DNA of 24,000 nucleotides from Acidimicrobiales bacterium (GTDB taxonomy: Bacteria > Actinomycetota > Acidimicrobiia > Acidimicrobiales > CATQHL01), in contig CAXXMX010000006.1 of assembly GCA_963668565.2 (NCBI GenBank), positions 1-24,000 on the forward strand. Reading direction: 5' to 3'. Positions 3,791 to 21,400 of this stretch are shown piece after piece. A model generated the notes under the pieces. The model did no database searches and was not told the origin of the DNA. It was given only the letters and a program-made list of their open reading frames with translations. The stretch's first letter is position 1. The number at the start of each line of letters is the position of its first letter. A program made the translations under genes and the position numbers.

Positions 3791-3812
3791 CAAGGCGGGT
3801 AAGCGCCTGCGC

Positions 3813-4058: not shown

Positions 4059-4142
4059 TCCGCCGCCTGCCGTGCCCGCTGAGCGGCGCCAACCGGCGCG
4101 GTGCGGCCGAGCACGGACGCGGCTCGGTGACCCCCGGTGCGT

Positions 4143-5000: not shown

Positions 5001-5011
5001 GGCCAGTGACA

Positions 5012-5033
5012 CTAGATGATTAGTTCCAAGGGG
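5012..5033. repeat. IS982 terminal inverted repeat (end downstream of the transposase gene)
   Basis: Read directly from the sequence. Its reverse complement matches 6064-6085 at 21 of 22 positions. Confidence 0.85.
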
Positions 5034-5942
5034 TCAGTGGTCGTAGGCGAGTAGGGAGCGGGCGGGGCCTGGTTGTTGGGTGGTTTGGTTGTGCCAGATT
5101 GTGGCGGTGAGGGCGAGGAGTCGTTGTAGGACGCGCGCGGCGACGCCGGCGGGGGTGCGCCCGCCGTGGCGTTCGAGGCCGAGTTGGGCTTTGAGGGTCT
5201 GGTTGACCGATTCGATGATCTGGCGGAACGGCCGCAGGAACGCCCGGCCCGCTCGGGTGGGTTCTGTTTTGGTGGCGGGTCGGATGAGGGTGATGCCCGC
5301 GTTGTTGAGTTGGGCTTCGAAGGCGGCGCTGCGGTAGCCCACCTCGGCGATGAGGGTCTGGCCCCGCCGGGCGACGCCGGCGTGGGCGATCATGTCCCAA
5401 CAGACGTCGCGCTCGTCGGCTTTCGCGCCGGCGAGGGCGAAGGTGATGGGCAGGCCCGACGGGGTTGTTATGAGGTGCAGGCGCAGGCCCCAGAAATAGC
5501 GGGAGTGCGAGGCGCTGTAGCCGTAGGTGGCCCATCCGGGCCGCTCAGAGCGCTTTTGGGTCTCGCGGCTGCGCCCGCACTCCACGGGCGTGGAGTCCAC
5601 GAGCCAGACGTCGTCGTGCCAGGACGCGCAGGCGCGTGCGAGGCAGGCCATCACGTGCTTGATCAGTTCGCCGCTGCGGCGCAGACGCTTGTTGTAGCCG
5701 GGCCGCGGGGGCACGTAAGGAAACCACGGCGTCAGGTGTGCTTTGGCGTAGCGCACGAAACGGGCCTCAGAGTCGAACCCCAACAAAGCCTGCAACACCG
5801 CCAGAGAAACCAGCTCCGCATCAGACAGTTCCGGGGCGATACCCACCGCGGGCCGCGGCGGCGCCCACTGCGGGTGCGCCACCAACAAGTCATCAATCGT
5901 CACATAAAGTGCCGTCGCGAGGGTGTCCAAGTCCGGGTTCAT
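5034..5942 (-). CDS. IS982-family DDE transposase
   Basis: MNPDLDTLATALYVTIDDLL...LSDAELVSLAVLQALLGF...WLVDSTPVECGRS...YGYSASHSRYFWGLRLHLI...ADERDV...LIAEVGYRS...RQIIESVNQTLK. ATG 5942 is preceded by GGAGGA. The longer 6035 start in the track is unlikely. Confidence 0.85.
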   Translation of the reverse strand: MNPDLDTLATALYVTIDDLLVAHPQWAPPRPAVGIAPELSDAELVSLAVLQALLGFDSEARFVRYAKAHLTPWFPYVPPRPGYNKRLRRSGELIKHVMACLARACASWHDDVWLVDSTPVECGRSRETQKRSERPGWATYGYSASHSRYFWGLRLHLITTPSGLPITFALAGAKADERDVCWDMIAHAGVARRGQTLIAEVGYRSAAFEAQLNNAGITLIRPATKTEPTRAGRAFLRPFRQIIESVNQTLKAQLGLERHGGRTPAGVAARVLQRLLALTATIWHNQTTQQPGPARSLLAYDH

Positions 5943-6063
5943 GCCAAGGTCCTCCAGGATCGGGGGCGGTTTCACCTCCCGATCTTGGACACCCTCAACC
6001 ACCCAGCGGCGGACCCCCCGCTCGCACCACCACACCGCCGACTTGGCCGACCCCCCGCTCGCA

Positions 6064-6085
6064 CCCCTTGGAACTACTCATCTAG
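6064..6085. repeat. IS982 terminal inverted repeat (end upstream of the transposase gene)
   Basis: Partner of 5012-5033. It overlaps the second copy of a 17-bp subterminal direct repeat, GACCCCCCGCTCGCACC (6012-6028 and 6049-6065). Confidence 0.85.
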
Positions 6086-6165
6086 AAGACCGTCACGTGG
6101 CTGCGGCCGTGCCACGAGGTCGGATACCGCAGTCCGCTGAACACCGCGGCACTACCGTTAGCGCC

Positions 6166-7476
6166 ATGGCCGGTTCCGAGACGGCGGCGACTCAGGAACT
6201 CCGCGCGCTCGACCCGTCCCTCGAGCGCCGGTTCGTCCGTCTGACCGACCGGGTGTTCGTCGCCGCCGGGTACGGCGGGTCGACGTTCTCCTTCGTGGTC
6301 GGTGATACCGGCATCGTCGCCGTCGACGCGGGCAGCGCGCCGGGCCCGGCGGCGGAGGCGATCGCCGAGCTCAAGCGATACAGCGACCTGCCCATCGTTG
6401 GGCTCGTCTACACCCACGGGCACATCGACCACACCCACGGGGCGATCGCGTTCGTCGAAGAGAACCCCGACATCGAGATCTGGGCGATCAAGCCGTTCGG
6501 CACCGAGGCACGAACGCTGGCTCGAAACCGTGCCGAGATCGCGGCCACGCGGGCGCTCCGGCACTTCGGGATCATGCTCCCCCCTGACAAGACGATCAAC
6601 ACCGGGGTCGCCCCGCCTGCTGCACCCGAGGACATCCCCGCGTCGATCGATCTCGACCGACGGATACTCCCGACGAGGAGATTCAAGCGAAGCGCCACCA
6701 TCCGGCTGGGTGGGATCTCACTCGACGTGACGCACAACCCCGGCGAGACGGACGACCAGGTGCTCGTCTGGTTCGAGGCCGAACGGGTCGCCTTCGCCGG
6801 CGACAACATGTACCGCTCGTGGCCAAACCTGTACGCCATCCGGGGTACCCAGTACCGCGACGTCCGCACCTGGTGTGAGTCGATCGACCGGATCCGTGCT
6901 CTGCAGCCCGAACACCTCGTGCTCGGCCACACGTTGCCGTTCAGCGGAGCCGCCGAGGTCGACGAGGCGCTGGACGTTTACAGCCGGGGGCTGTGGCACG
7001 TGTACAACGCGACCATCGACGGAATGAACGCCGGGAAGACGCCCGATGAGCTGGTGCACGAGGTGCGGCTTCCCGACGAACTTGCCGCTCACCCGCTGCT
7101 GCGCGAGTACTACGGCAACGTCAGCTGGTCGGTGCGCGCCATCTTCGCCGGCGTGCTTGGCTGGTTCGACGGCAACCCCACGACCCTGAACCCGCTGCAT
7201 CCTGCCGACCGCGCAGGGCGGATCGCGGATCTCCTCGGAGGCCCCGATGTGCTGTTCACCGAAGCGGCGGCCGCTCTGGGTGCCGGCGAGGCGCAGTGGG
7301 CGGCCGAACTCTGCGACATGCTGGACGCGCTTGACTTCCGGCCGGCCGAGGTGGCTGCGCTGAAAGCCGAAGCCCTCGACGAGATCGCCTACAACCTCCT
7401 CACCACGTCCGGCCGCAACTACCTCCACACCTACGCACAGGAACTTCGCTCGTCTGTTGAAGGCGATGAGCGGTAG
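6166..7476 (+). CDS. Alkyl/aryl-sulfatase-like MBL hydrolase (MBL domain plus alkyl-sulfatase dimerisation domain; no SCP2 tail), paralog 1
   Basis: MAGSETAATQELRALDPSLERRF..., HxHxDH in VYTHGHIDHTHG, then NPGETDDQVLVWF, NMYRSWPNLYAIRG, VLGHTLP, YYGNVSWSVRAIFAGVLGWFDGNPTTLNPL and GEAQWAAELCDML. The 5923 start in the track lies inside the IS. ATG 6166 matches the N-terminus of paralog 2. Confidence 0.85.
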   Translation: MAGSETAATQELRALDPSLERRFVRLTDRVFVAAGYGGSTFSFVVGDTGIVAVDAGSAPGPAAEAIAELKRYSDLPIVGLVYTHGHIDHTHGAIAFVEENPDIEIWAIKPFGTEARTLARNRAEIAATRALRHFGIMLPPDKTINTGVAPPAAPEDIPASIDLDRRILPTRRFKRSATIRLGGISLDVTHNPGETDDQVLVWFEAERVAFAGDNMYRSWPNLYAIRGTQYRDVRTWCESIDRIRALQPEHLVLGHTLPFSGAAEVDEALDVYSRGLWHVYNATIDGMNAGKTPDELVHEVRLPDELAAHPLLREYYGNVSWSVRAIFAGVLGWFDGNPTTLNPLHPADRAGRIADLLGGPDVLFTEAAAALGAGEAQWAAELCDMLDALDFRPAEVAALKAEALDEIAYNLLTTSGRNYLHTYAQELRSSVEGDER

Positions 7477-8773
7477 CGAGACGGCGGCGACCCGCGAGCT
7501 GCGCTCGGTCAACCCCTCCCTGGAGCGCGCGTTCGTTCAGCTGACCGACCGCGTGTTCGTCGCTGCCGGCTACGGCATGTCGACGTTTGCCTTCGTGGTC
7601 GGTCAAACCGGCATCGTCGCCGTCGACGCCGGCAGTACACCCCGCGCATCGGCCGAGGCGATCGCCGAACTGCGGCGCCACAGCGACCTGCCGATCCTCG
7701 GGCTCGTCTACACCCATCACCACTTCGACCACACCTACGGGGCGGTGGCGCTCGTCGACGAGAACCCCGATATCGAGATCTGGGCCATCGAGCCGTTCGG
7801 CAACGAGACGCTGCACCTCTTCTGTGTCGCCACGGTCGCCAGGCAACGCGCCCTGGGGCAATTCGGCCACCTGCTCCCAGCCGAACTGCATATCAACAGC
7901 GGCTTCGCATCAGCGTCGGCGACGCGCGACTTCCGTATCGGCGAACTCCCCGACCCGCGGATCGGCCCCACCAGGACGTTCGAGGGGGCCACGACCGTAC
8001 GGCTGGGCGGCGTCACGCTGGAGGTGTCGCACAACCCCGGCGAGACCGATGATCAGGTTCTCGTCTGGTTCGAGGACGAGCGGGTCGCCTTCGTCGGCGA
8101 CAACATGTACCGGTCGTGGCCGAACCTGTATGCCATCCGGGGCTCGCGGTACCGGAACGTGCGCGACTGGTGCGAGTCGATCGACCGCATCCGTGCCCTG
8201 CAGCCCGACCATCTCGTGCTCGGCCACACGCTGCCGATCAGCGGCGCCGCCGGGGTGGCCGAAGCGCTGGAGGTCTACAGCCGGGGACTGTGGCACGTCT
8301 ACAACGCCACGATCGAGGGGATGAATGCGGGGAAGACGCCCGATGAGCTTGTGCATGAGGTGCGGCTTCCCGACGACCTCGCAGACCATCCGCTGCTGCG
8401 CGAGTACTACGGCACCGTCGCCTGGTCGGTGCGCTCGATCTTCAACGGTGTGCTCGGCTGGTTCGACGGCAACCCGACGACCCTGAACCCGCTCGATCCC
8501 GCCGACCGTGCCCGGCGGATCGCCGGTCTCGCCGGAGGTGCAGGCGTGCTGGCGGAGCGGGCCCGTGCGGCGCTGGCCGGCGGCGAGGCGCAGTGGGCCG
8601 CCGAGTTGTGCGACATGCTCCTGGCGCTGGATGTCCGCCGGGCCGAGGTGACGGCGCTGAAGGCTGACGCCCTCGACGAGCTGGCCTACAACTCCGTCAC
8701 GGCGACCGGCCGCAACTACCTGCACACCAGCGCGCAGCAACTCCGCGAGGCCATTGACACCGCAGGCGGCTAG
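7466..8773 (+). CDS. Alkyl/aryl-sulfatase-like MBL hydrolase, paralog 2 (tandem duplicate)
   Basis: MSGSETAATRELRSVNPSLERAF..., VYTHHHFDHTYG, NPGETDDQVLVWF, VLGHTLP, WFDGNPTTLNPL. ATG 7466 overlaps the 3' end of paralog 1 (its TAG is at 7474-7476). By eye it is about 80% identical to paralog 1, except for one divergent central block. Confidence 0.85.
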   Translation: MSGSETAATRELRSVNPSLERAFVQLTDRVFVAAGYGMSTFAFVVGQTGIVAVDAGSTPRASAEAIAELRRHSDLPILGLVYTHHHFDHTYGAVALVDENPDIEIWAIEPFGNETLHLFCVATVARQRALGQFGHLLPAELHINSGFASASATRDFRIGELPDPRIGPTRTFEGATTVRLGGVTLEVSHNPGETDDQVLVWFEDERVAFVGDNMYRSWPNLYAIRGSRYRNVRDWCESIDRIRALQPDHLVLGHTLPISGAAGVAEALEVYSRGLWHVYNATIEGMNAGKTPDELVHEVRLPDDLADHPLLREYYGTVAWSVRSIFNGVLGWFDGNPTTLNPLDPADRARRIAGLAGGAGVLAERARAALAGGEAQWAAELCDMLLALDVRRAEVTALKADALDELAYNSVTATGRNYLHTSAQQLREAIDTAGG

Positions 8774-8812: not shown

Positions 8813-9535
8813 TCAGCCCTGCGCCGGCGCCTGCAGTACGCGCAGGAGGTCGTTTGCCGAGACCTCTATGAGTTCGGTCATGACCCGGGCGGCCTCGTCC
8901 TCGTCCCGTCGGCGTATGGCATGAGCAACCTCGGCGTGTAGCCCGAGGGTGGTGGCCGGACCGCCGGGCACTTGCACGGTGAGACGGCGGCTCCCCTCCA
9001 GTGCGATCCGGATCGTCTCGGCCATCTGCGCCAGTACGGGATTCGCCGCCGCCCGGAACACTGCGTTGTGGAATTCCAGGTCGGCTGCGATGTACCGGCT
9101 GAAGTTGGAGACCGCGTCGGCCATCGCCCCATACAGGTCGACAAGCATGTCCGCCGCCTCGTCGCTCCGCCGGCGCGCTGCCAACCTTGCCGCCTCCGGC
9201 TCGATCACCAGGCGCACCTCGGCAACGTGACTGAGCGTCGTCGGCGCTGATCGGGCGGCGATGCTCCAGCGCAGGACGTCTGGATCGAGCAGGTTCCACG
9301 ATCGGTGGTTTGCGACGACGGTGCCCGCCTTCGGGCGGGACTCGATCAGTCCCTTGTCCCGGAGAAGCCCCAAGGCTTCCCGAACCACGGTGCGTGAGAC
9401 TCCCAACTCCACCGAGAGGTCGTCCTGGTTCGCAAACCTGTGCCCAGGCGGATAGGTGCTGTCGATGATGCTGTAGCCGATTCTCTCGACAGTGCGCTGA
9501 CGCAGACCAGTGCCGGTCCGGGTGTCGAAGTCCAC
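8813..9535 (-). CDS. GntR-family transcriptional regulator, FadR subfamily (winged HTH plus FCD domain)
   Basis: LRQRTVERIGYSIIDSTYPPGHRFANQDDLSVELGVSRTVVREALGLLRDKGLIESRPKAGTVV, followed by an all-helical FCD-like C-terminus (RLVIEPEAARLAA...DLEFHNAVFRAAANPVL). GTG start at 9535. Confidence 0.9.
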   Translation of the reverse strand: MDFDTRTGTGLRQRTVERIGYSIIDSTYPPGHRFANQDDLSVELGVSRTVVREALGLLRDKGLIESRPKAGTVVANHRSWNLLDPDVLRWSIAARSAPTTLSHVAEVRLVIEPEAARLAARRRSDEAADMLVDLYGAMADAVSNFSRYIAADLEFHNAVFRAAANPVLAQMAETIRIALEGSRRLTVQVPGGPATTLGLHAEVAHAIRRRDEDEAARVMTELIEVSANDLLRVLQAPAQG

Positions 9536-9618: not shown

Positions 9619-10875
9619 ATGAAGATCACCGGCATCACCTCCCACGTCGTCGCCAATACCTGGAAGGACTGGCTCTGGGTTCGGGTCGACACCGACGAGG
9701 GGATCCAAGGAGTTGGCGAGGGGACCGTCAACGTGTTCACGCGCACGGTCGAGACCGCCATACGTGACCTCCACGAGAGGTTCGCGGGCCATGACCCGTT
9801 CGAGATCGAAGCGCTACTGGTCGCCACCCAGCGCGATGTCTACACCGATGGCGGGCAGATCCACGGGGCCGCCGTGGCGGCAATCGAGATGGCTTGCTGG
9901 GACATCATGGGCAAGGCGTTGAACGTTCCTGCACACAGGCTGCTCGGCGGGCGGATCCGCGACCGGGTCAGGGCCTACGCCAACGGGTGGTACACGGTGG
10001 AACGCACCCCGGAGGCGTTTGCCGGGGCGGCCCGCCGTGTTGTGGACCTCGGCTTCACCGCCATGAAGTTCGACCCCTTCGGCGATGCGTGGCAGGTTCA
10101 GAGCGGCTACGAGGAGGACATCGCCATCTCCCTGGTGGAGGCCGTTCGCGACGAGGTCGGCCCCGGCTCGGACCTGATGATCGAGGCCCACGGCCGCTTC
10201 GGCATGTCCGCGGCTCTGCGCATCGCCGAGAGACTCGCTCCGTTCCGGCCGGCCTGGTTCGAGGAGCCGGTCTCCCATCACAACATCCCGGTGCTGGCGG
10301 ACGTTGCGCGGCGGTCGCCCGTGCCCGTCGCAGCAGGCGAGTCGTTCTCGGCCCTTCACCAGTTCGCCGAGCTGCTTGCCACCGGAGCGGTGGGAATACT
10401 GCAGCCCGAGCCGGTCCACCTCGGGGGACTCTGGCGCACGAGGCAAGCGGCGGCACTCGCTGAAGCGGGTCACGCCGTGGTGGCGCCCCACAATGCTCAG
10501 GGCCCCATCTGCTCGGCGGTCAGCGCGCAGCTCGCGGCCTGCGTGCCGAACTTCTACGTCCAGGAGTCCTTCGACAGCTTCAACGAGGACTGGACGCGCG
10601 ACCTGGTTGATCCGCCCATCAGCGTGGTCGACGGCTACATCGACATACCCAAAGGGCCCGGACTCGGCATCGAGGTCGACTGGGCACGCGTCGAGAGCCA
10701 TGCCGGCGGCAAGCGCCACTCCCTGGAGTTGTTCTCCCGTGGTTGGGAGTTGCGCGGCGCGGACCAAGCGCCAAGCGGCCGAGGCATCGGCGTCTCGGGA
10801 ACGCAGGCCGCCGACCCATCCCAGCCGTCGTCGCGGAGTGATGAGAACCCAACCAACCCGACTACTGAAAGGTAG
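9619..10875 (+). CDS. Enolase-superfamily sugar-acid dehydratase (mandelate racemase/muconate lactonizing family, DgoD-like)
   Basis: MKITGITSHVV...VRVDTDEGIQGVGEG, AIEMACWDIMGKALNVPAHRLLGG, MIEAHGRF, WFEEP, AAGES, ILQPEPVHLGG and APHNAQGPI. GGAG lies 7 nt upstream of the ATG. The last ~35 aa or so (ADQAPSGRGIGVSGTQAADPSQPSSRSDENPTNPTTER) are low-complexity with lower GC3. Confidence 0.85.
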   Translation: MKITGITSHVVANTWKDWLWVRVDTDEGIQGVGEGTVNVFTRTVETAIRDLHERFAGHDPFEIEALLVATQRDVYTDGGQIHGAAVAAIEMACWDIMGKALNVPAHRLLGGRIRDRVRAYANGWYTVERTPEAFAGAARRVVDLGFTAMKFDPFGDAWQVQSGYEEDIAISLVEAVRDEVGPGSDLMIEAHGRFGMSAALRIAERLAPFRPAWFEEPVSHHNIPVLADVARRSPVPVAAGESFSALHQFAELLATGAVGILQPEPVHLGGLWRTRQAAALAEAGHAVVAPHNAQGPICSAVSAQLAACVPNFYVQESFDSFNEDWTRDLVDPPISVVDGYIDIPKGPGLGIEVDWARVESHAGGKRHSLELFSRGWELRGADQAPSGRGIGVSGTQAADPSQPSSRSDENPTNPTTER

Positions 10876-10880
10876 GGAGA

Positions 10881-12044
10881 ATGAGAAAGAGAATGACGCT
10901 GCTCGCAGGAGCGGCACTGGCTGTGGTGCTGGTCGCCGCCGCATGCGGGGGTGGAGACGAGGCCTGACCGGCAGCAACTCCACCCCCACCGGAGCCGGCA
11001 GCACCCGCACCGGCGCCGGAGCCGGCGCCCCCCGAGCCCGCCCCCGCACCAACGCCGGAGTCGGAGCCGGCAGCACCCGCCCCCGCACCGACGCCGGAGC
11101 CGGCACCGGCGGAGGCGGTTCTGTCCAACGTCCTACGCACGTCGGACAACCTCTGCGATTCGACGCTCGACAAGGAGATGGGCGAGTTGGTCGTCGGGTT
11201 TAGCCAGATGGAGTCCGAGGGCGCGTGGCGCATCGCGGAAACGCAGTCGATGGAGGACCAGGAGGGCCGCGTTTCGAACGTGATCACTACGGACGCGCAG
11301 GGCGACCTGGCGAAGCAGATCACTGACATCCAGGATCTTGTGAACCAGGGCGTCGACGTGATCCTGCTGGCGCCGCGCGAAGCGGACGGGCTCGACGAGG
11401 GCCTCGACACCGCCCGCGACGCCGGGATTCCGGTCCTGTTCGTCGACCGCTCGCACGAAGGCGCGCCGTGCGAGGATTTCGTGACATTCATGTCGTCGGA
11501 CTTCGTGGAGCAGGGACGCATCGCCGGCCGGCGCCTCGCGGAGGCGACCGGCGGCGAGGCCAGGATCATCCAGCTCGAGGGAACAGCGGGATCCGATGTT
11601 GCCCGAGACCGCAAGTCCGGCTTCGACGAGATCGTTGACGAGAATCCCGGTATGGAATTGCTGGCCTCACAGACGGCTGACTTCAGCCGCGCCCAGGGCC
11701 AGAACGTCGCCAGCCAGCTCGTGCAGTCGCATCCCGACGTGACGGCCATCTACGCTCATAACGACGAGATGGCGCTCGGGGCGATAGCGGCGCTGGAGGC
11801 GGCCGGAATGACACCGGGCGAGGATCTACTCGTGGTCTCAATTGACGGCGTCCGCGACGCCTTCGATGCCATCAAGGAAGGCAAGATGCTGGTGACCGTC
11901 GAGTCGAACCCACGCTTCGGCACGATGGCCTTCGACACGATCGAGCAGATGACGCTCGGCCGCTCGGTCCCCGACCGGATCGTCATCGAGGACCGGGTGT
12001 ACGACGCAGGCAACGTCGACCAGTACTACGAGCTGGGGTACTAG
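10881..12044 (+). pseudogene. ytfQ: YtfQ-like (galactofuranose-type, CUT2) sugar-binding lipoprotein gene with one in-frame TGA
   Basis: ATG 10881 follows AGGTAGGGAGA. The signal peptide is MRKRMTLLAGAALAVVLVAAAC with lipobox VAAAC, then GGGDEA, then TGA at 10965-10967. The same frame continues without shift into a Pro/Ala/Glu linker (PAATPPPPEPAAPAPAPEP...) and the mature domain. That domain reads VVGFSQMESEGAWRIAETQS...AHNDEMALGAIAALEAAG...SIDGVRDAFDAIKEGK...YELGY, which aligns with my recollection of E. coli YtfQ (VGFSQVGSESGWR...AHNDDM..GAI...SIDGV...MGY). Confidence 0.8.
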
Positions 12045-12073
12045 GCACCGAGCGGCACCGCGCCTCGGCCGGT

Positions 12074-12136
12074 CCGCAGCCCCTCCGTGCTCGGTTTCCA
12101 GTCCCCCCCTGGAAGCCGAGCACGGAGGGGCTGCGG
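12074..12136 (+). promoter_or_regulatory. Long intercistronic hairpin between the binding-protein and ATPase genes
   Basis: Arms 12074-12101 (CCGCAGCCCCTCCGTGCTCGGTTTCCAG) and 12109-12136 (CTGGAAGCCGAGCACGGAGGGGCTGCGG) form 28 bp, with a single position that would be a U-G pair in the plus-strand RNA. The loop is 7 nt (TCCCCCC). No U-tract follows, so it looks like an mRNA-stability or attenuation element rather than a classic terminator. Confidence 0.6.
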
Positions 12137-12173
12137 CCCATGGCCCTGGCCCAACGAGGAGGAACAGGTCGCG

Positions 12174-13724
12174 ATGGACGGAGCGCTCATCCCTAACGTC
12201 GAGGCTGTCGGCGTGAGCAAGAGGTTCCCCGGCGTGTTGGCGGTCGACGGTGTCGACATGGCGGTGCGCCCCGGTGAGGCGCGCGCCCTCGCCAGCCAGA
12301 ACGGCTCCGGCAAGTCGACGCTGATCAAGATCGTCGCCGGTGTTTACCGCCCCGATGCCGGCACCGTGAAGGTAGGCGAGACCCCCGTCGCGTTCCGTTC
12401 CCCGCCGGAGGCGGTGGCCGCCGGGATCAGCACCATCCATCAGGAGGTCAACCTGATCCCCCCGCGCTCGGTCGCCGAGAACCTCTTCCTGGCCCGCGAG
12501 CCGAAACGGGGACCGTTCATCGACCAGCGGCGTCTGGTCCGCGATAGCGAGGAGATCCTCGCTCGCTACGGCCTCGAGAGCGTCGATCCCAACGCAGAAG
12601 TCGGTCGCTTGAGCATCGCGGTCCGGCAGATGGTTGCCATCGTGCGCGCGGTGTCGCAGGACGCCCGGCTCGTCATCATGGACGAGCCCACCTCATCGCT
12701 GGAGACCGCCGAAGTGGAACGGCTCTTCGGCATCATCGGGCGGCTTCTGGCCGAGCAGCGCTCGGTGCTGTTCGTCAGCCACAGGCTCGAGGAACTCTAC
12801 GAGGTGTGCGAGACGCTGACCGTCCTGCGTGACGGGCGGGTCGTGTTCGACGGTCCGGTTGCCGAGTTGGACCGCGAGAGCCTCGTGACGAGAATGATCG
12901 GCCGCCGTCAGACCGGCTCGACCGGGCGCAGCACCGGGTTCCGTCCGATCATGGCGACCGACGCGCCAACGGTGCTCGAGGCCGACAGCGTGAGCAGCGC
13001 GGACGTGGAGGAGGCGTCGGTGAGCGTGCGTGCCGGAGAGATCGTCGGCCTCGCGGGTTTGCTCGGCGCTGGGCGTACCGAACTCGCGGAGATCCTCTTC
13101 GGGGTGGCGCGGCGCACCGGTGGGGACGGCTTTGTGAGCGACAGCGGCCGCCTGCCGGATTCGCCGGGCGAGGCGCTTGCCAGCGGCATGTCGCTGGTGC
13201 CCGAGGACCGGCGAGCGCAGGGCATTTTCCCCGGGCAGTCTGTTCGCGAGAACGTCATCGCCGCGGCGCTGCCAAAGCTCACCCGCCGCGGTCTCATCGA
13301 TCGAGCCGCCGTCGACGCACTAGTAGGTGATCTCGTCGACATGCTCGATATTCAGCTCGCGTCACTCGACCAACCGATCGAGTAGCTGTCGGGCGGCAAC
13401 CAGCAGAAGGTGATCCTGGCTCGCAGCCTGAGTCTCTCGCCCCTGGTGCTGATCACCGACGAACCGACCCGAGGCATCGACGTCGGCAAGTTCGAGATCG
13501 GCCTCACACGCGTCAAGTTCGAGATCCAGGCCCGCCTCAGTGACCTCGCTGCGAACGGTATGGCCATCCTGATCATCTCCTCGGAACTGGAGGAGTTGCT
13601 CGAGGGCACGCATCGCACCGTCGTCATGCGCGACGGCCGCACCGTGGCCACATTGAGTGGAGAGGACCTCTGCGAGCAGAGCCTCGTGGCACTCATGTCG
13701 ACGGACGCTTCGCCGGAGCGATGA
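12174..13724 (+). pseudogene. ytfR: CUT2-type sugar ABC transporter ATPase (two fused NBDs) with one in-frame TAG
   Basis: GAGGAGG precedes ATG 12174. NBD1 has an atypical Walker A (ASQNGSGKST, where the family has GENGAGKST) and Walker B LVIMDEPTSSL. NBD2 has Walker A GLLGAGRTE. ...LDQPIE is followed by TAG at 13383-13385, and the same frame goes straight into the signature LSGGNQQKVILARSL, then ITDEPTRGIDVG... and ends at TGA 13722-13724. It also carries a 27-bp in-frame insertion (13487-13513). Confidence 0.8.
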
Positions 13725-14722
13725 CGATTCTGCGCACGGCGCGTCCAGCCGGCGCGTCGGCGTCGGGCGAGTTGGGCGCACTGCTTCGCCGGCACGGGAT
13801 CTTCCTGGGTTTGGCGGGCCTCATCGTGCTCAACACGATCATCACACCGCACTTCTGGGCGTGGACCACCCTTCGCCTGCAACTCCAGCAGGTGACACCC
13901 CTCGTCTTCACGTCCCTGGGCATGGCATTCGTGGTGGCCACCAAGGGGATCGACATATCCGTCGGCGCGATCATGGCGGTCGCCTCGGTGGTGATCGCCA
14001 TGACAATCGCACCGCTGGGCTTGCCGCTCGCCGTCCTTCTGGCCCTGCTGGCGGCCGCCGGGTGCGGGCTGCTCAACGGGTCGCTCGTCGCGTTCCTGCG
14101 CATCCAGCCGATCGTTGCCACCCTCGGCTTCCTCGTGGGCGGACGCGGTCTGGCGTCCGTGATCGTCGACGGCAAGTCCAGATCGCTATACGACGACACG
14201 TTCATTCGCTTCGGGCGCAAGTACTACGAGCTTCCGTTCGGCGCAAGCGTGCCCCTCGCCGCCGTGGTCTGGGCGGCACTCGCTGTCGGCATCTGGTGGC
14301 TCATGCGGTCCACGCGTTTCGGGTTCCGCATCCGCGCCGCCGGCGCCAACCCGGTGGCTGCGGGCCTCAGCGGCTAGAGCGTGCGCCGGACGATCCTGGC
14401 GGTCTACGTGGTGAGCGGCGTACTCGCCGGAATCGCCGGAATGTACGTGACCGCTCTCGCTGCGCACAGCGATGCCACCCAGGTCGGACTGCTGATGGAA
14501 CTCGACGCCATCGCCGCCGTCGTGGTGGGCGGTACCAGCCTGCAGGGTGGTGAATTCTCGGTCCCTCGCACCGTCGCCGGAGCTAACTTCGTGCTTCTCA
14601 CCGAGACGACACTGCTCCGCAACAACGTCGATACGGCCTTGACCCAGTTGGTCTCCGGTCTCATAATCCTCGCCGCCGTGTTCGTGGCAGTCCGTGTCTC
14701 GCACCGTGTCGAGCGGATGTGA
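13721..14722 (+). pseudogene. ytfT: Sugar ABC transporter permease 1 (RbsC/YtfT-like) with one in-frame TAG
   Basis: ATG 13721 overlaps the ATPase stop (ATGA). The sequence is hydrophobic with a multi-TM pattern and GIDISVGAIMAV. ...RIRAAGANPVAAGLSG is followed by TAG at 14375-14377, then SVRRTILAVYVVSGVLAGIAG... in the same frame to TGA 14720-14722. The stop falls in the conserved (A)ARLSGI.V.. loop of this permease family. Confidence 0.8.
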
Positions 14723-15768
14723 CCGGTATGTCGGGCGACCGTGGGCCGGCAGCCGTCCCCGGGCGGGGCCGGTCGCTCGTGGTCCTCCTGAGGTTCCGTG
14801 CGAGGCAGCAACCCGGCCAGATCCTCGGTCCGCCACTCGCCCTGCTGTTGGGTCTGGTCGCGGCAAGTCTTGCCTTCGACGGCTTCCTGAGCGGGCCCAA
14901 CCTGTCCAGCGTGCTGGAGCGCTCGGCCTTCGTCGGGATCATCGTGGTGGGCATGACGTACCTCATCATCGCCGGGGGGATTGACCTCTCGGTGGGCTCG
15001 GTAGCGGCGCTCGCCGGAGTGGTGGTGGCGAAGTTCGTGGAGGCCGGGATAAACCCTCTGCTAGCGCTGCTGGCCACGATGGCCGTCGGCGCGGTGATCG
15101 GCCTCGCTCAGGGTTTGGCGATAGCCCGCGGAAATCTGGAGCCGTTCATCGTGACACTTGCCGGACTGCTGTCGGTGCGTGGGTTGGCGCTACTGCTGTC
15201 CGACGAGCAGAACGTGGCTCTGCCCAACGAGGGTCTGGCGCGGACGATCGGCACGGGAACGGTGTTCTCCGTCGGCGAGTACCGCCTCGCCTCGCCGGCG
15301 GCGATCATGCTCGCGGCGTTCGCGGTGGGCGCCATCGTGCTGCGCAGAACAACATTCGGGCGTTCACTGTTCGCCATCGGCGGCGACGAGAAGTCGGCCC
15401 GGCTGCTCGGCGTGAAGGTGGTGAGCGTCAAGATCAGGGCGTACACCGTGTGCGCGAGCCTGGCGGCGTTGGCGGGAGTTCTCCTGGCCTACCGCCAGAC
15501 GTTGGGGAGACCGTTCGCCGCGGAGACCTACGAGTTGTTCGCGATCGGCGCCGTCGTCGTGGGCGGCACCCTGCTGACCGGCGGCCGCGGCTCGATGATC
15601 GGCAGCCTCTCCGGCACGCTCCTGCTGTTCGTCATCCAGGTCTCTATCAACCGGATGGGCCTCAACGCCTTCTGGCAACAACTCGTGTCGGGCATGTTCC
15701 TGCTACTGGCTGTGGCGGCCCAGAGCCTCCTGCAGCGCCTTCCCAAGCCGGCCGCCGCGAAACGCTGA
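14719..15768 (+). CDS. yjfF: Sugar ABC transporter permease 2 (YjfF-like), intact
   Basis: GTG 14719 overlaps the stop of permease 1 (GTGA); ATG 14728 is an alternative start. Motifs: GGIDLSVGSVAALAG, FAIGGDEKSARLLGVKVVSVKIRAYTVCASLAALAG and VVGGTLLTGGRGS. It is uninterrupted over 349 codons. The gene order (SBP, ATPase, permease, permease) is that of ytfQRT-yjfF. Confidence 0.8.
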   Translation: MTGMSGDRGPAAVPGRGRSLVVLLRFRARQQPGQILGPPLALLLGLVAASLAFDGFLSGPNLSSVLERSAFVGIIVVGMTYLIIAGGIDLSVGSVAALAGVVVAKFVEAGINPLLALLATMAVGAVIGLAQGLAIARGNLEPFIVTLAGLLSVRGLALLLSDEQNVALPNEGLARTIGTGTVFSVGEYRLASPAAIMLAAFAVGAIVLRRTTFGRSLFAIGGDEKSARLLGVKVVSVKIRAYTVCASLAALAGVLLAYRQTLGRPFAAETYELFAIGAVVVGGTLLTGGRGSMIGSLSGTLLLFVIQVSINRMGLNAFWQQLVSGMFLLLAVAAQSLLQRLPKPAAAKR

Positions 15769-15835: not shown

Positions 15836-16144
15836 TCAGCAGCCGAGTGCGTGGGCCACGGAGCGGCAGACGTCGCGCATGGTCCGTTCGTCCAACTCGC
15901 CGGCTCGCCGCGTTAGCGACGAGCGCCGCACGGTGTGCAGACCGTCGCAGTTCACGACCGAGGTCTCCGCCGTGCCTGCCTCGGGCACCCCGATGGGGAC
16001 TTCGACCGCCAGTCCACGGATGGTGGTGGTGATCTCTGCAACGGTGACCATCGCGCGCACGTCGATGACCTCGGGCCGGGTGAGCACTACGACCGGTCGC
16101 CGTTTCCGGCCGACCTCGGCCCACCACACATCCCCGCGGTTCAC
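15836..16144 (-). CDS. mazF: Type II toxin, PemK/MazF-family endoribonuclease
   Basis: MNRGDVWWAEVGRKRRPVVVLTRPEVI...AEITTTIRGLAVEVPIG...SVVNCDGLHTV. The GTG start overlaps the antitoxin stop (GTGA at 16141-16144). Confidence 0.85.
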   Translation of the reverse strand: MNRGDVWWAEVGRKRRPVVVLTRPEVIDVRAMVTVAEITTTIRGLAVEVPIGVPEAGTAETSVVNCDGLHTVRRSSLTRRAGELDERTMRDVCRSVAHALGC

Positions 16145-16350
16145 CGGTCACTCCATGCTTCGGCGCCGTCCCAGAAGTCGTCGGGCTGCTCGGGGTTTCG
16201 CTGGTATGCAACGCGATCGGCCATGGCCATGGCGCGTCGCACAGCCTCTGCAACGCCCTCGCGGGCTGCAGCGGAGAGGTTGATGTCGAGCCGCCGCGCC
16301 TGTTCGGCCAGAGTCTCGTCCAGGGTGAAAGTGGTGCGCATCGTTGCCAT
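16141..16350 (-). CDS. Type II antitoxin (ribbon-helix-helix type) partner of MazF
   Basis: 69 aa, MATMRTTFTLDETLAEQARRLDINLSAAAREGVAEAVRRA..., with an acidic C-terminus. It lies upstream of the toxin, overlaps it, and is preceded by a palindromic operator. Confidence 0.8.
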   Translation of the reverse strand: MATMRTTFTLDETLAEQARRLDINLSAAAREGVAEAVRRAMAMADRVAYQRNPEQPDDFWDGAEAWSDR

Positions 16351-16398: not shown

Positions 16399-16513
16399 TG
16401 TCGGCGACGGCCTGCATCCACGGTCCCACGACAGTGCCGCCGCCGGTTGCGACGGCGCGGCGTGGCGTGATTCCGGCGGCCTCGATGTGGCGGCGCACGA
16501 CGAATCCGGCGGC
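16399..16513 (-). pseudogene. Fragment: partial duplicate of the FGGY kinase gene
   Basis: By my manual alignment, 115 bp align with 17317-17430 of the intact kinase gene at about 90% identity. The fragment encodes AAGFVVRRHIEAAGITPRRAVATGGGTVVGPWMQAVAD; the intact gene encodes AAGFVVRRHIEAAGITPRRIVATGGGTVVGPWMQALAD. Homology stops abruptly on both sides. Confidence 0.8.
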
Positions 16514-16539
16514 ATGACCGGCTCCCCGGGGACCGGCGG

Positions 16540-16850
16540 TCTCGCTCAGTCCGCGTGACGAGATCCGCGCCGAGCTGAACCCCATCGGGACGGTCTCGAC
16601 GAAGCTGCTGCACACCGCCGGCTGACGACTTCACCACGAGGGAGACTCGCCACCACGGGCGATGTCGATCCGCTGTCGCTTAAGCGAAGCTGAGGAAGCC
16701 GCTCGTCCCGTGGGCGCATCGACGGCGGCACCGGAATCGGCCTTTCCCTGGTCAGGGCGATCGCGCAACGGCACGGAGGCACTGTCCGCGTTGATGATTC
16801 GGGGAGTGTCGGCGGTGCTCCGTTTCACCCTCGAACTGCCGCGGTCCGGA
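16540..16850 (+). pseudogene. Remnant of a sensor histidine kinase C-terminus (HATPase_c), with multiple frame disruptions
   Basis: The best segment, 16709-16830, reads RGRIDGGTGIGLSLVRAIAQRHGGTVRVDDSGSVGGA. After a frameshift it continues RFTLELPR. Upstream pieces (..LLHTAG*RLHHEGDS.., ..GDVDPLSLKRS*) are in other frames. There is no start codon and no N-terminal domains. Confidence 0.5.
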
Positions 16851-17103: not shown

Positions 17104-18459
17104 CTAGGCCTCAGCCAGCAGGCCTTCGAAGCGCCGGTAGCGCTGCTCGGCGGGGCCCGTCCACCGGGGGTCCGGCTCGACGATGCGGGCCGTGCGGGCC
17201 CAGCGGGCACCCTCGGCCAGGTCGGTTTCCAACCCGGCGACCAGGCGGGCGGCGAAGGCGGCGCCGAGTGCCGCGCTCTCGGGGGTGGCGCCGACGTGCA
17301 CGGGGAGGTTGCAGCAGTCGGCGAGGGCCTGCATCCACGGTCCCACGACGGTGCCGCCGCCGGTCGCCACGATGCGACGGGGCGTGATACCGGCGGCCTC
17401 GATGTGGCGTCGCACGACGAATCCGGCGGCCTCCAGGGCCGCCCGGTGGAGGTGCGTCTGGCGGTGTGTGGCCTCCAAGCCCAGGAGAGATGCCGTGCGG
17501 GCCTTTCCGGCAGTGGGAGTGCGTTCGGGGTGAATCGAGGGGATCCACACGGGCAGGTCCGCGGGATCGATGCCCGCCAGCAGCGCCGTGAATTCCTCGT
17601 CGCCCGGCGGGTCGCCCAGCATCGCCCGCACCCGGTCCCGGAAGAGCCCGCCGGCGTTGCTCGGGCCGCCCACGAGGAACCGATCGGCGGCCACGTGGGG
17701 AATCGTCCACAGGCCGTCGAGTTCCAGCCAAGTGTCGGTGACGGCCCAGCACAGCAGGGTGCTGCCGAGTGTGACGATGATGTCGCCCACGTCGAGAGCC
17801 CCGGCGACGGCCAGCTCCGCGAGGCCGTCCACGATGCCGGCGCCCAGCGGGATTCCCTCGATGTCGCCGGCCGGAACCCAGCCCGCCACGAGCGTCGGGA
17901 GCTGCTCGGAATCGACGCCGAGCTCGCCGCAGAGTGCCGGATCCCAGCCCGTGCCGTCGAAGACCGGCATCGCGGTCATCGCAGTGGCGGTGTCGAGGGC
18001 CGCCACCCCGCCGAGGGCGTGGTTGACCACGGTCTGCGCCGGCCAGAACCCGGCGGCGTCACGGTGGCGGCCTGCCAGGTGGCGAAGGAATCCGACCCAC
18101 TCCTCGTTGCCCACCGGTGGCAGGTCGGCGATGGCCTCGCCGCGGGCGTCGCCGTACAGGAGGCCCGCGCCGAGCGGCACGCCCCGGTCGTCGACGGCAG
18201 TGAGCGACGGCACCATGGCGGCCACGCACACCGCCTGCGGATCGCCCGCTCGGCGCACGTCGGCCCAGGCCGCCAGCGGTCCGGCGTGCCAGGCGCTCGC
18301 GGCGTCGTGCTCCAGCAGCCCCGGCGCCGGTACGCGCAACTCGTGCGGCCGCCGGGTGCGGGCCAGGATCCGGCCTTCGGCGTCGACGGCGACCGCTTTG
18401 ACCGACGTGGTGCCGACATCGATACCGATCGTGACGGGTGGCCCGCCGTTGCCGCTCAC
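17104..18459 (-). CDS. FGGY-family carbohydrate kinase (xylulokinase-like)
   Basis: VTIGIDVGTTSVKAVAVDAEGRIL..., ...GGPSNAGG..., ...IVATGGGTVVGPWMQALAD.... The GTG start at 18459 overlaps the lhr stop (GTGA at 18456-18459). Confidence 0.85.
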   Translation of the reverse strand: MSGNGGPPVTIGIDVGTTSVKAVAVDAEGRILARTRRPHELRVPAPGLLEHDAASAWHAGPLAAWADVRRAGDPQAVCVAAMVPSLTAVDDRGVPLGAGLLYGDARGEAIADLPPVGNEEWVGFLRHLAGRHRDAAGFWPAQTVVNHALGGVAALDTATAMTAMPVFDGTGWDPALCGELGVDSEQLPTLVAGWVPAGDIEGIPLGAGIVDGLAELAVAGALDVGDIIVTLGSTLLCWAVTDTWLELDGLWTIPHVAADRFLVGGPSNAGGLFRDRVRAMLGDPPGDEEFTALLAGIDPADLPVWIPSIHPERTPTAGKARTASLLGLEATHRQTHLHRAALEAAGFVVRRHIEAAGITPRRIVATGGGTVVGPWMQALADCCNLPVHVGATPESAALGAAFAARLVAGLETDLAEGARWARTARIVEPDPRWTGPAEQRYRRFEGLLAEA

Positions 18460-21400
18460 CGCAGCGACGCCCCCACGGGCGGCTCCGCGTGCTCGCCATC
18501 GGGCATCGGGCCCTCCAGGGTCTCCGGGGAGGGGAGGGGCAGACCGTCGATGTACGTGACCGTTCGGGTCGCGACGGCCGGGACTCGAGGGCCGGGCGTG
18601 ACGATTCCGGTGAGGTTCAGCGGATCGGTCGCCGAGATCTCCACCCGCTCACTGGTGCGCTCGCTGCGGCGCACGCGGCGCAACTCGTCGACGGCGGCCG
18701 GCAGCGCGAACTGCTCTCCGGTGAACCCGGTCACGAAGCGCCCGCCGCGGACGACGCCGCGAGCCTCCAGGCGGCGCAGCGCCCACAGCACCTCGCGCCA
18801 GGGCAAAGCCAGGGTCTCCATCGCCCGGAGGTCGCGGAAAACCACCCCCCAACGTGCCAGGAGTTGCTCGGCGACCGCCTCGGCCAGCTCGTCGGACTCG
18901 AACTCGCCGTCGGGAGCGACCAGCAGAGACCATCGTCCCACCGGGCCGGTCAGTCCCTGCGCCCCCCGGCGCAATCCTCGCCGCGGCTGCTGGCGGCTGC
19001 CGTAGACGCCCCGGCGCGGTCCCCCGAGCAGGGAACGCAGCGCGCCGAAGCTGTCGGCTGTCAGGAGGCCGCGGGCGACGCCGTCGGTGAGTCCCGATTC
19101 GATGTCGGTTAGGAGCCGCCCGCAATCTGCGGCCAGCTCGTTGGCGAAACGGGCGCCGTGGCGTTCGAGGGATTCGGCGATCTCTGCGGTCGCACCGGCG
19201 TCGGGCACCGCGGGCATCTCGGCGCCGCGGGCCGCCGCTGTCAGCCAGTCGAAGTCACCGCGCAGTCCAAGCGTCACCGGTGTAACGCGGGACGTGGCGG
19301 TTCCGGGGCGCCCCTCGTCGCCACGTCGCAGTCCCAGGCGACCCCAGGCAAGCTCGCCCGACAGACACAGGTCGTCCAGCCAGACGGGCAGGTAGCCGTC
19401 GATGCGCCGGGCGAGGATCTGCTTCTCCCAGGTTCCCGCAGCCGTCTCGAATCCCTGCAATTGCTCGATCACGGCGCTGAGCCCGGCGCGGCCCCGCACC
19501 TGCGTGCCGGGCGCCACATGCTGCCAACGGAACAGGAAGCGCATGAAGTCCTGTGCGGTGACCGGCTGGATGTCCTGGCGGCGCCGGCGCTGGGAGTAGA
19601 CGTGGATGCGTGCCAGCAGGCGGCGGCTGCACCACTCGGACTCGGCTGCGTCTGTTGAGGCCGGCGTCTGCGGGCGGAACTGACCGGAGAGGGCGAAACC
19701 CTCCGCCTGCAGTGCCGCAAGAGCGATCTTGGTGGTTCCGAGCCCCAGCGACGTGGCCGCCGCGAGCTCCGCGACGGTCACCGGCCCCATGACCTCGAGG
19801 TGACCGCGAATCGCCTCGATTGCCACGTCGGCAGGGTCGCCGATGTCGGTCGGCTCGTCCGCGCCGTCGCCTGCCGGTATGTCCTCGCCCAGCAGGGCAG
19901 CCACAGCCGGGCGCAACTCGGTCGTGCACCAGTAACCGCCGACGGTGCCCACCCGCCCGGCGGCGGCCAGCCGGCCGTACAGGCCCTCCCAGCCGGCCCG
20001 CGGCCGGCACAGCACCAGCTGTGCCAGCAGGTCGTGCAACTCGTCGGGGTCGCGCACGTCGGGCGCCACCTCGGCGCAGGTGCGTGCGATGGCGTCGGGG
20101 TGCAGCGCGCCGATCTCGCTGAGGTCCACGGGCAGCCCACGCGGTAGCCGCACCGCCCGGGTCCTCCGCTCCTCCAGCGGCGCCTCGTCGAGGAAGGTGA
20201 AGGGGCGGCCGTTGAGGATCTCGTGCGCGAGGGGGGAGGGCTCGGGGGTGTCGCGGAACTCGACGGCCACCTCGCCGGTCCGCAGCGCCTTGAGCAGTTC
20301 GACGAGCCCGTCGATGTCGGTGGCCTCGTGCAGGGCGTCGTGGAGGGTCTGGCGCACCAGCAGGTGGTCGGGGATGGGGATCGGCCCGGGATTGTTGTCC
20401 CCGCAGGCGGCGAGGCCGGGGAACACCGCGGCCATCACGTCGTCGGCCTCCATGCGCTGGATCGGCGGCGGGTTGCGCTTGCCGCCCTTGAAGCGCAGCA
20501 CGGTCAGCGCCCGGTTGAGGTTCCAGCGCCAGCGCACCCCGAACAGTGGTGACACGATGATGGCCTGCGTCAGCACGTCGGTCACGGAGCCGGGGTCCAA
20601 CATCCGCGGCACGTCGGAGAGCGGGAAGCTGTGCTGCGGGCCGAGCGACAGCACCACGGCGTCGTCGTTGGCCGCGGCCTGCAGTTCGAAGTCGAACGTG
20701 CGGCAGAAGCGTTTGCGCAGCGCCAGACCCAGCCCGCGGTTCAGGCGCCCCCCGTGGGGGCTGTGGATCACGAGTTGCATGCCGCCGGTCTCGTCGAAGA
20801 AGCGCTCGATAATCAGCCGCCGCCGCGTGGGCAGCGAGCCCAGAGCGGCCCGGGCGGCGGCGAGGTACGACACGACGGCCTCGGCGGCAACATCGGAGAC
20901 GCCGCAGCGCTCGGCGGTGGCGGCGCGGGCGCCGTCGGGGTCACCGGCGGCGAGGAACTCCTCGACCAAGCTGCGCAGGTCGCTGACCTCGTTGCTCAAC
21001 TCCGCGGTGCGGGAGGGAGCCTCGCCCAGCCAGAACGGCACCGTGGGCGGCGCACCCTCGGCGTCGACCACCCGCACCACTCCGGACTCGATGCGCCTGA
21101 TCCGCCAACTGTGCGACCCCAGGAGGAACACGTCGCCGGCCATGGATTCGATGGCCCAGTCCTCGTTGACCGTCCCCAGGAACGTGTCGTCGGGGTCGAG
21201 CAGCACGCGGTAGTCGGCCACGTCCGGGATCGCTCCGCCGGAGGTCAGCGCTGCCAGGCGTGCGCCACGGCGCCCCGCGGCCTCGCCGGCCGCGGTGTCC
21301 ACGTGGACGTAGTCGCCGCGGCGACCGCGCCCGGTGGTGACGCCGGTGTTCACGAAGCGGAGCGTCTCGTCGAAGTCGGTGCGCGTCAGGTCCGCGTAGG

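Follow-up and report, generated by a model that had tools for sequence, protein, structure and literature searches.

Three in-frame stop codons in a Ytf-like sugar importer operon of an uncultured Acidimicrobiales bacterium: probable progressive pseudogenisation within a strain population

How can an operon carry one in-frame stop codon in each of three consecutive genes and yet keep its reading frames and family motifs past every one of them? This question was raised by a stretch of 24,000 nucleotides (the window) from an uncultured Acidimicrobiales bacterium. In-frame translation bore out the first-pass annotation on the basic facts: the binding-protein, ATPase and permease 1 genes each contain a single internal stop (Table 1), the phase is the same across each stop (between points 297, 1236 and 660 nt apart), Pfam domains run across each one, GC3 stays high past every stop (0.78-0.90), the ATGA (13721) and GTGA (14719) gene overlaps are present, and the fourth gene, permease 2, is an uninterrupted ORF. 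Three explanations had been offered: a ytfQRT-yjfF-like importer that turned into pseudogenes very recently, read-through or suppression of the stops, and base-call or consensus error. In a comparison with about a dozen near-identical strains, ancestral sense codons, nested lesions and a relaxed dN/dS all speak for the first, and it is very probable that the importer has recently undergone progressive pseudogenisation, a neutral decay within one lineage of the strain population.

The importer operon and its surroundings

As judged from its translated products, the operon is a predicted four-gene CUT2-type sugar ABC importer, similar to YtfQRT-YjfF, with a lipoprotein binding protein, a fused double ATPase and two permeases. 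The bacterium belongs to a natural strain population whose closest relatives are sponge-associated, and its genome has a GC content of 68%. The binding protein consists of a signal peptide with lipobox, a Pro/Ala-rich linker and a mature domain; its predicted lipoprotein export signal reads MRKRMTLLAGAALAVVLVAAAC. It groups with the cluster-B Peripla_BP_4 proteins (PF13407, E = 1.6e-46) and matches the YtfQ structures 6hbd (E ~1e-63) and 2vk2 (E ~1e-52). The ATPase gene of the window retains both NBDs, laid out as for a single double-NBD polypeptide and separated by stop 2, which directly precedes the NBD2 signature LSGGNQQK. Both permeases carry PF02653, so that the pair of BPD_transp_2 permeases is complete. 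For permease 2, the GTG at 14719 that forms the GTGA overlap is an alternative start, while gene callers use the ATG at 14728; the 346-aa form begun at the ATG is on record, and the protein begun at the GTG found no exact match.

The architecture in four parts and the gene order are like those of the galactofuranose system YtfQ-YtfR-YtfT-YjfF of E. coli (CUT2), and a Ytf/YjfF model is the best NCBIfam match for each of the four proteins, just as the YtfQ structures are the best matches in the PDB. The scores nevertheless remain far below the cut-offs of the Ytf/YjfF equivalog models (233/510, 476/850, 169/535 and 235/363 bits), and on this NCBIfam measure of orthology the importer is to be classed as Ytf-like, not Ytf. 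It also differs from the E. coli system in that its binding protein is a predicted lipoprotein with a long Pro/Ala linker, and in its context of an MR_MLE dehydratase and a GntR/FCD regulator.

The regulator gene is divergent from the dehydratase-transporter cluster. The best NCBIfam matches of the dehydratase are gluconate and galactonate dehydratase, both under cut-off; its protein is identical in all strains, the exact sequence being present on at least 20 contigs, and the polymorphisms among strains comprise 0 nonsynonymous and 10 synonymous changes, the mark of a gene still under constraint. This genomic context suggests a putative sugar or sugar-acid substrate for the importer. In seven of nine related species the importer is absent beside the GntR and MR_MLE genes, and it appears to have been dispensable in the clade that carries the broken operon, as the presence of broken beside intact strains in the same samples also suggests. 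The locus also adjoins a defence and mobile-element hot spot. By its GIIM domain and the Rfam intron domains, a nearby reverse transcriptase is the maturase of a group II intron. DGR mutagenesis targets adenines, and considering the identity of the reverse transcriptase and the fact that the mutated bases are G and C, DGR-type mutagenesis was rejected as a source of the stops.

Table 1. Coordinates of the features in the window
Feature	Position	Strand	Basis or remark
GntR/FCD-family regulator	8813..9535	-	Pfam GntR + FCD; intact, 240 aa in every related locus
Enolase-superfamily (MR_MLE) sugar-acid dehydratase	9619..10875	+	Pfam MR_MLE_N/C; intact
Lipoprotein sugar-binding protein pseudogene, YtfQ-like (Peripla_BP_4)	10881..12044	+	Translation, Pfam, structure matches
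Stop 1, TGA from GGA (Gly) by G>T	10965..10967	+	Strain alignment; Gly in outgroups L012, L013
Perfect 28-bp stem-loop in binding-protein/ATPase spacer	12074..12136	+	RNA fold, alignments
Fused double-NBD ABC ATPase pseudogene, YtfR/AraG/RbsA-like	12174..13724	+	Translation, Pfam ABC_tran x2, NCBIfam
NBD1 Walker A first glycine change, GGC>AGC	12294..12296	+	Window and L004 only
Stop 2, TAG from CAG (Gln) by C>T	13383..13385	+	Alignment; common to all broken haplotypes
24-nt in-frame insertion, partial duplication of CAAGTTCGAGATC	13486..13509	+	Window only
Permease 1 pseudogene, BPD_transp_2, YtfT-like	13721..14722	+	Translation, Pfam
Stop 3, TAG from CAG (Gln) by C>T	14375..14377	+	Window and L004 only; youngest stop
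Permease 2, YjfF-like	14728..15768	+	ORF open in window, 346 aa from ATG 14728

Distribution of the lesions among strains

An intact operon is present in seven co-occurring, near-identical strains (98-99% identity), in which the binding protein measures 383-387 aa and the ATPase homologue, with two ABC_tran domains, 508 aa; permease 1 is intact (333 aa) in all haplotypes other than the carriers of stop 3. Alignment recovered the ancestral codons, a check that had been proposed at the outset: the three sites read GGA, CAG and CAG in the seven strains, the two outgroup species (L012 and L013) keep Gly, Gln and Gln, and the site of stop 3 is also Gln in P0018 and P0016. Reassignment of TGA and/or TAG to sense, for which nothing speaks other than the in-frame stops themselves, can be virtually discounted: two different stop codons would have to be reassigned at once, the relatives have Gly or Gln at the three sites (as GGA or CAG in the strain loci), and TGA (nine times) and TAG (five times) end intact genes of the window where their homologues predict.

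The lesions are nested. Stops 1 and 2 occur in every broken haplotype found, i.e. the window, L004, L003, L008 and two contigs of 3.29 and 3.77 Mb, the latter two compared at protein level. Stop 3 is shared by the window and L004 together with a change that the first-pass annotation had overlooked, the Gly-to-Ser replacement that turns the Walker A motif GQNGSGKST into SQNGSGKST; the Gly is still present in the 3.29-Mb haplotype (P0005). The 24-nt insertion, which adds eight residues just past the NBD2 Walker B motif (DEPTRGIDVG), is missing from all ten related loci (L001-L010), and the 104-aa product that bears it was found on one contig only, of 64,101 bp. The sister haplotypes have lesions of their own: a 477-nt deletion, costing the ATPase 159 codons, and a 1-nt deletion in the same gene (L003, L008 and the 3.77-Mb contig), deletions of 84 and 170 nt in the binding-protein gene (L008), and a frameshift that splits permease 2 into fragments of 282 and 77 aa (P0024-P0027; 3.29-Mb and 3.77-Mb contigs). 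Having stops 1 and 2 in common, these lineages and that of the window went on to gather the additional lesions expected of a recent pseudogene. The stops had been described as a substitution-only pattern, unusual for its lack of indels. Neither description could be upheld: the window itself contains the 24-nt insertion and a binding-protein/ATPase spacer that is 11 nt shorter than in the intact strains (an alignment indel), and within the broken clade indels and nonsense changes stand at 6:3.

The source is a metagenome assembly, and internal stops can be assembly artefacts, notably at low coverage (PMC11017572). Against assembly or base-calling errors, all three stops return in L004, which was assembled separately from another sample (ERZ28669063) and differs from the window by 21 substitutions and 10 indels, while stops 1 and 2 are found again in ERZ25074053 and ERZ28763718 contigs as well as on the two contigs of 3.29 and 3.77 Mb. 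Moreover, their distribution is nested, phylogenetically coherent and linked to other variants, and the lesions are confined to the operon, since the 3,072 codons of the remaining conserved genes in the window contain no stop (p ~6e-4 if errors fell at random and at equal rate). Error, one of the original suggestions, is for practical purposes excluded.

Recombination is evident from the haplotype block in permease 1 and from the permease 2 frameshift, the distribution of which is incongruent with that of the 477-nt deletion, and the tree-like order of events is therefore only approximate. The block comprises 13 clustered differences at 14165-14527. It could be taken for a mutation burst, an idea that we rejected: about half of the window alleles match the outgroups, indicating an old recombinant haplotype. 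When the JGI metagenome collection was searched with a degenerate 30-mer across stop 2, no single-stop haplotypes came up, the only match being a distant homologue with the CAG allele (~81% identity over ~130 nt).

The distribution of the lesions shows that in an ancestor of the broken lineage the binding-protein gene suffered GGA>TGA and the ATPase gene CAG>TAG, in either order. The sub-lineage of the window then gained missense changes, including the loss of the Walker A glycine, as well as CAG>TAG in permease 1, and last of all the 24-nt insertion; deletions and frameshifts arose independently in the sister sub-lineages. Either early stop should disable the whole transporter, the parts of which are obligate partners, and stop 1, at codon 29 of the first operon gene, may in addition lower downstream expression by polarity. 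All four genes would in this way be freed from selection together, and it is presumably for this reason that lesions accumulate in adjacent genes. Behind the stops are G:C>A:T transitions and a single G:C>T:A transversion, types that as a rule predominate among spontaneous bacterial mutations. When inspected by eye, neither of the C>T sites matched the Dcm motif CCWGG or a DddA-type TC motif.

Selection after the stops

The changes that postdate the stem of the broken clade number 14 nonsynonymous against 5 synonymous in the broken genes (dN/dS ~1.0), versus 17 against 27 among the intact strains (dN/dS ~0.22; Fisher p = 0.014). Polarisation by the outgroups gave 16:7 for broken and 8:14 for intact genes (p = 0.038), and p = 0.12 when the stops themselves were left out, the substitutions being few overall. 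Selection on the broken genes has been relaxed since the shared lesions, as far as such small numbers go. The comparison of dN/dS upstream and downstream of the stop within each gene, which had also been proposed, involves changes too few for any inference. Permease 2, with a V>L and an F>S replacement in the window, shows 3 nonsynonymous and 6 synonymous changes in the broken lineages, contrary to the neutral expectation; many of these changes may predate the inactivation or stem from recombination. The three-stop pattern in the window is not beyond chance. About 21-28 substitutions fall on its lineage, and a random substitution yields a stop in 1.9-2.9% of cases. With one stop taken as given, since it drew attention to the locus, at least two more have a probability of 0.06-0.19, and the absence of any frameshift one of 0.08-0.53.

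Low-level or conditional expression by read-through or a suppressor tRNA, as in the 'pseudo-pseudogenes' of Salmonella, would be in keeping with the frames and motifs preserved past each stop. Position -1 is C or G at each stop, and with the base that follows, the stops read TGA-C, TAG-C and TAG-A; in Salmonella low-level read-through concerns mostly UAG with an adjacent cytosine (PMC9122581). Such expression is nonetheless very unlikely here, although traces of read-through product may be made. Read-through would be needed simultaneously in three separate polypeptides, of which the ATPase has also suffered the Walker A change and the eight-residue insertion in the window; dN/dS is ~1 after the stops; and 14 intact genes of the window end in TGA or TAG, as ordinary terminators. 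Sisters with the same stops 1 and 2 subsequently lost 159 ATPase codons and gained frameshifts, and therefore nothing was being maintained. The stops are not conserved among relatives and are followed by neither purifying selection nor, in the sister haplotypes, intact sequence, in contrast to what marks recoding. No tRNA genes were found in the window or in L001-L010 (14-21 kb each), a weak test that covers ~0.2 Mb of a genome of ~3.3-3.8 Mb.

A further rival is a loss that was adaptive rather than neutral. Broken haplotypes make up ~10 of the ~36 contigs that carry the locus, roughly a quarter to a third, these being contig counts and not allele frequencies. At least two samples contain both broken and intact strains, the assembly coverage of the two being similar (in ERZ25074053, 15x for the broken versus 13x and 7x for the intact operon), and the broken haplotypes have had time to split into at least five sub-haplotypes. 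Taken with the adjoining hot spot and the absence of the transporter next to GntR-MR_MLE in most related species, these figures could point to adaptive loss, in which selection favoured inactivation of the importer or its surface lipoprotein; possible reasons are escape from phage or host recognition, cost saving, or a function shared among co-resident strains. Adaptive loss usually shows itself by repeated independent first hits. Here, stops 1 and 2 are common to all broken haplotypes and indicate a single origin, with no sign of such repetition, and neutral loss of a dispensable function fits the same data, so that adaptive loss appears unlikely. It is likewise rather improbable that the null allele is an old polymorphism kept by selection at intermediate frequency in symbionts, perhaps with trace read-through, and we are similarly doubtful of selection on it through, for instance, phage or host-factor escape via the surface lipoprotein or a division of labour among strains.

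Relation to other decaying operons

Neutral stepwise pseudogenisation places the locus among the unitary pseudogenes and decaying operons of Salmonella Typhi and Paratyphi A, Mycobacterium leprae, Sodalis and the leaf-nodule Burkholderia, with which it has in common mostly C>T nonsense changes followed by further lesions, a dN/dS that rises to ~1 and intact orthologs in close relatives. As in those bacteria, a fair part of the indels are multiples of three (477, 84 and 24 nt); a bias to 3n deletions has been described for bacterial pseudogenes (PMC6054270). Unlike the known cases, the decay is polymorphic within one metagenomic strain population, with both alleles in the same samples, and within the window it affects the importer operon only. 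The likeness to the Salmonella 'pseudo-pseudogenes' (Feng et al. 2022, PMC9122581) extends to UAG and UGA stops that arose by point mutation, an adjacent C and a preserved frame; what sets the operon apart are the further disruptive lesions and the dN/dS of ~1, which indicate that no function was maintained. In all probability this is ordinary pseudogenisation, without a special decoding mechanism.

For annotation this implies that, in the strain of the window, the four genes should bear the label of pseudogenes or of a transporter without function, and that in-frame stops in metagenome assemblies should by default be taken neither for errors nor for recoding. The locus provides a clean, small example of stepwise, polymorphic operon decay, from nonsense through catalytic-motif missense changes to deletions and frameshifts. 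As a neutral marker it could help to track strains or to calibrate mutation spectra in these uncultured Acidimicrobiales. Finally, the spacer between the binding-protein and ATPase genes (12045-12175), which holds the stem-loop of Table 1, folds with -89.3 kcal/mol (z = -7.6).

The importer operon and its internal stops

The best-matching models of the four proteins were YtfQ, YtfR, YtfT and YjfF, and the solved structures nearest to the binding protein were those of YtfQ. On this basis the operon is predicted to encode a CUT2 monosaccharide importer that is like the Ytf system in architecture, although its proteins all score far under the equivalog cut-offs. The importer genes lie in one cluster with those of a GntR/FCD regulator and of an enolase-superfamily dehydratase (MR_MLE); the best matches of the latter were gluconate/galactonate dehydratases, below cut-off. 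Translation in the own frame confirmed what the first-pass annotation had read: one stop without frameshift in each of three genes, an equal reading frame on either side of each stop, preserved ATGA and GTGA overlaps and an uninterrupted permease 2. The reported persistence of high GC3 and family motifs was likewise found, with a GC3 of 0.78-0.90 all along the operon genes and Pfam domains (Peripla_BP_4, two ABC_tran, BPD_transp_2) that continue past the stops. The region between the binding-protein and ATPase genes (12045-12175) folds at -89 kcal/mol (z = -7.6). In the intact strains, 11 more bases are present at the stem-loop that separates the two genes and the stem is less perfect; the outgroups form a compensated hairpin there, suggesting that an intercistronic RNA structure is conserved.

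Features of the window and its operon, in order of position
Feature	Position	Strand	Internal stops	Details
Group II intron	1918-3791			complete; Rfam D1-D4 domain 1918-2036, D5/D6 3716-3791
Intron RT/maturase ORF	2271-3728			RVT_1, GIIM
MBL protein	4143-5012	-		weak Apyc1 similarity
Alkylsulfatase-like gene, first	5923-7476			MBL-fold
Alkylsulfatase-like gene, second	7457-8773			MBL-fold
GntR/FCD regulator	8813-9535	-		
MR_MLE dehydratase	9619-10875	+		
Binding-protein gene (SBP)	10881-12044		1	stop 1, TGA at 10965
Stem-loop	12074-12136			perfect 28-bp stem
Fused ATPase gene	12174-13724		1	stop 2, TAG at 13383
Permease 1	13721-14722		1	stop 3, TAG at 14375
Permease 2	14719 or 14728 to 15768		0	
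Toxin-antitoxin pair	15836-16350	-		PemK/MazF-type toxin (102 aa), CcdA-type antitoxin (69 aa)
Lhr helicase gene	18456-22796	-		intact 1446-aa ORF

Origin and order of the lesions

Five assemblies in ENA were found by exact-protein look-up to contain the identical MR_MLE protein, on at least 20 metagenome contigs, and via such contigs ten related strain loci (L001-L010) were recovered, 98-99.6% identical to the window over the operon. The operon is intact in seven of them (L001, L002, L005, L006, L007, L009 and L010; SBP 382-387 aa, ATPase 508 aa, permeases 333 and 346 aa). In the alignment these strains carry GGA, CAG and CAG at stops 1, 2 and 3, where Gly, Gln and Gln are encoded by the syntenic operons of two outgroup species (L012 and L013, 85-92% amino-acid identity). 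Stop 1 arose by G>T and stops 2 and 3 by C>T. L004, from a separate sample, is fragmented in the same way as the window, from which 21 substitutions and 10 indels across 20 kb distinguish it; L003 and L008 are broken, but unlike the window.

Stops 1 and 2 are common to the window, L004, L003 and L008, and stop 3 is restricted to the window and L004. Both L003 and L008 have an in-frame 477-nt deletion (12569-13045) that joins the two nucleotide-binding domains (NBD1 to NBD2) and a 1-nt deletion at 13637; in L008 the binding-protein gene has lost 84 nt and 170 nt in two further deletions. By exact-sequence look-up, a 3.29-Mb contig carries the SBP fragment of the window and a 403-aa ATPase fragment (stop 2), with the Walker A glycine kept, Gln at the stop 3 site and permease 2 frameshifted (282 + 77 aa). 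This frameshift occurs together with the 477-nt deletion on a 3.77-Mb contig, and so in haplotypes with and without that deletion (proteins P0024-P0027). In the broken lineages permease 2 also carries 3 nonsynonymous against 6 synonymous changes, though constraint should be gone; the two observations together imply that pseudogene haplotypes recombined or that an indel recurred. From the nesting, the lineage of the window acquired stops 1 and 2 first, then V>L in SBP and V>I in the ATPase, next stop 3, Walker A G>S (12294) and a small number of other changes, and finally a 24-nt insertion (13486-13509) found in the window alone.

Consensus or base-call error, one of the options raised earlier, is excluded: the same stops return in independent assemblies of other samples, they show a nested distribution and linkage with other variants, and none of 3,072 other conserved codons in the window is a stop. 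All three stops are real. Reassignment of TGA and TAG is excluded as well, because they terminate intact genes of the window (9 and 5 times, respectively). The TGA-C and TAG-C contexts are similar to leaky ones reported for Salmonella pseudogenes (PMC9122581), and read-through may occur at trace level, but the functional read-through or suppression that had been proposed is not supported. The window ATPase also lacks a Walker A glycine and has gained eight residues in NBD2, and sisters with the same two early stops later deleted 159 codons and gained frameshifts; nothing is being maintained in the broken operon. Neither the window nor the ten related loci, together a small fraction of the genome, contain a tRNA gene. 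Very recent pseudogenisation, the leading option of the first-pass annotation, is therefore correct, given the sense codons in relatives, the nested further lesions and a dN/dS of ~1.0 (see below), and is a known kind of event.

The premise that the pattern is unusually indel-free did not hold, as the window itself has one coding and one intergenic indel, and the clade as a whole 3 nonsense mutations and 6 coding indels (3 in-frame, 3 frameshifting). Stop-creating changes make up 1.9-2.9% of all possible single-base substitutions in the intact operon, and 21-28 substitutions fell in the three genes on the lineage of the window. Conditioned on one attention-drawing stop, the probability of at least two further stops is 0.06-0.19; with an indel rate about an order of magnitude under the substitution rate, that of at most one indel is 0.08-0.72 and that of no frameshift 0.08-0.53. 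Deletions in bacterial pseudogenes favour multiples of three (PMC6054270). All four parts of such a transporter are obligate, and loss of any of them would free the rest from selection, so that lesions in neighbouring genes are to be expected. No special mechanism is needed.

Selection and probable dispensability

Since the shared stem, the three broken genes of the broken clade have accumulated 14 nonsynonymous (one a stop) and 5 synonymous changes (dN/dS ~1.0), versus 17 and 27 private to intact strains (dN/dS ~0.22; Fisher p = 0.014). Outgroup-polarised counts were 16:7 versus 8:14 (p = 0.038; p = 0.12 without stops). Strong constraint persists in the neighbourhood and relaxation is confined to the transporter, since the adjoining MR_MLE gene shows 10 synonymous and 0 nonsynonymous polymorphisms. 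In permease 1, 13 differences between 14165 and 14527 form a block common to the window, L004 and L003. This block was rejected as a burst of new mutations; around half of its alleles are outgroup alleles, and it represents an old recombinant haplotype.

The nearest species-level genomes are Acidimicrobiales MAGs (MR_MLE identity 74-82%), including 'Candidatus Aldehydirespirator' and bins (SB06xx, IRC4) that are presumably sponge-derived, judging from their names. Given these neighbours and the description of Aldehydirespiratoraceae in work on Actinobacteriota associated with sponges (PMC11706023), a sponge-symbiont origin is a reasonable inference. In 7 of 9 related species GntR and MR_MLE are kept without a trace of the transporter beside them, and the same samples hold broken and intact strains at similar coverage (broken form ~10/36 by contig counts), which fits the loss of a dispensable function. 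Selection may have favoured this loss, but all broken haplotypes have a single origin, without sign of repeated independent knock-outs.

Flanking elements

Immediately downstream of permease 2, the mixed PemK/MazF-CcdA pairing is kept in all strains. The block between this pair and an FGGY kinase (L002 16868-19803; FAA_hydrolase (MhpD-like hydratase), response regulator, histidine kinase) is missing from the window (about 16423-16653), L003 and L004 and retained in most other strains, broken L008 among them; with it, this catabolic neighbourhood may have lost one more part. The Lhr gene of L004/L091 (ERZ28669063 ctg65652) was annotated in two pieces, one of 837 aa and one of 218 aa in a different frame (about window 20940-20970), possibly owing to a frameshift or assembly indel private to L004.

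The flank before the GntR gene (0-9 kb upstream in L001-L010; window 1-5700) differs in nearly every strain and contains type I restriction HsdR, HipA, Fic, HNH, AAA_16/STAND-like ATPases and IS481 and DDE transposases, besides the MBL protein of the window; it resembles a hot spot for defence and mobile elements. Of the strain loci, only the window and L004 carry the group II intron, which is thus a recent insertion or strain-specific element. Both overlapping tandem alkylsulfatase-like genes stop directly past the Alkyl_sulf_dimr domain and miss the C-terminal SCP2-like domain. Other strains hold a single 409-435 aa copy or just 132-172 aa fragments at this spot, making it another structurally unstable, partly decayed locus.
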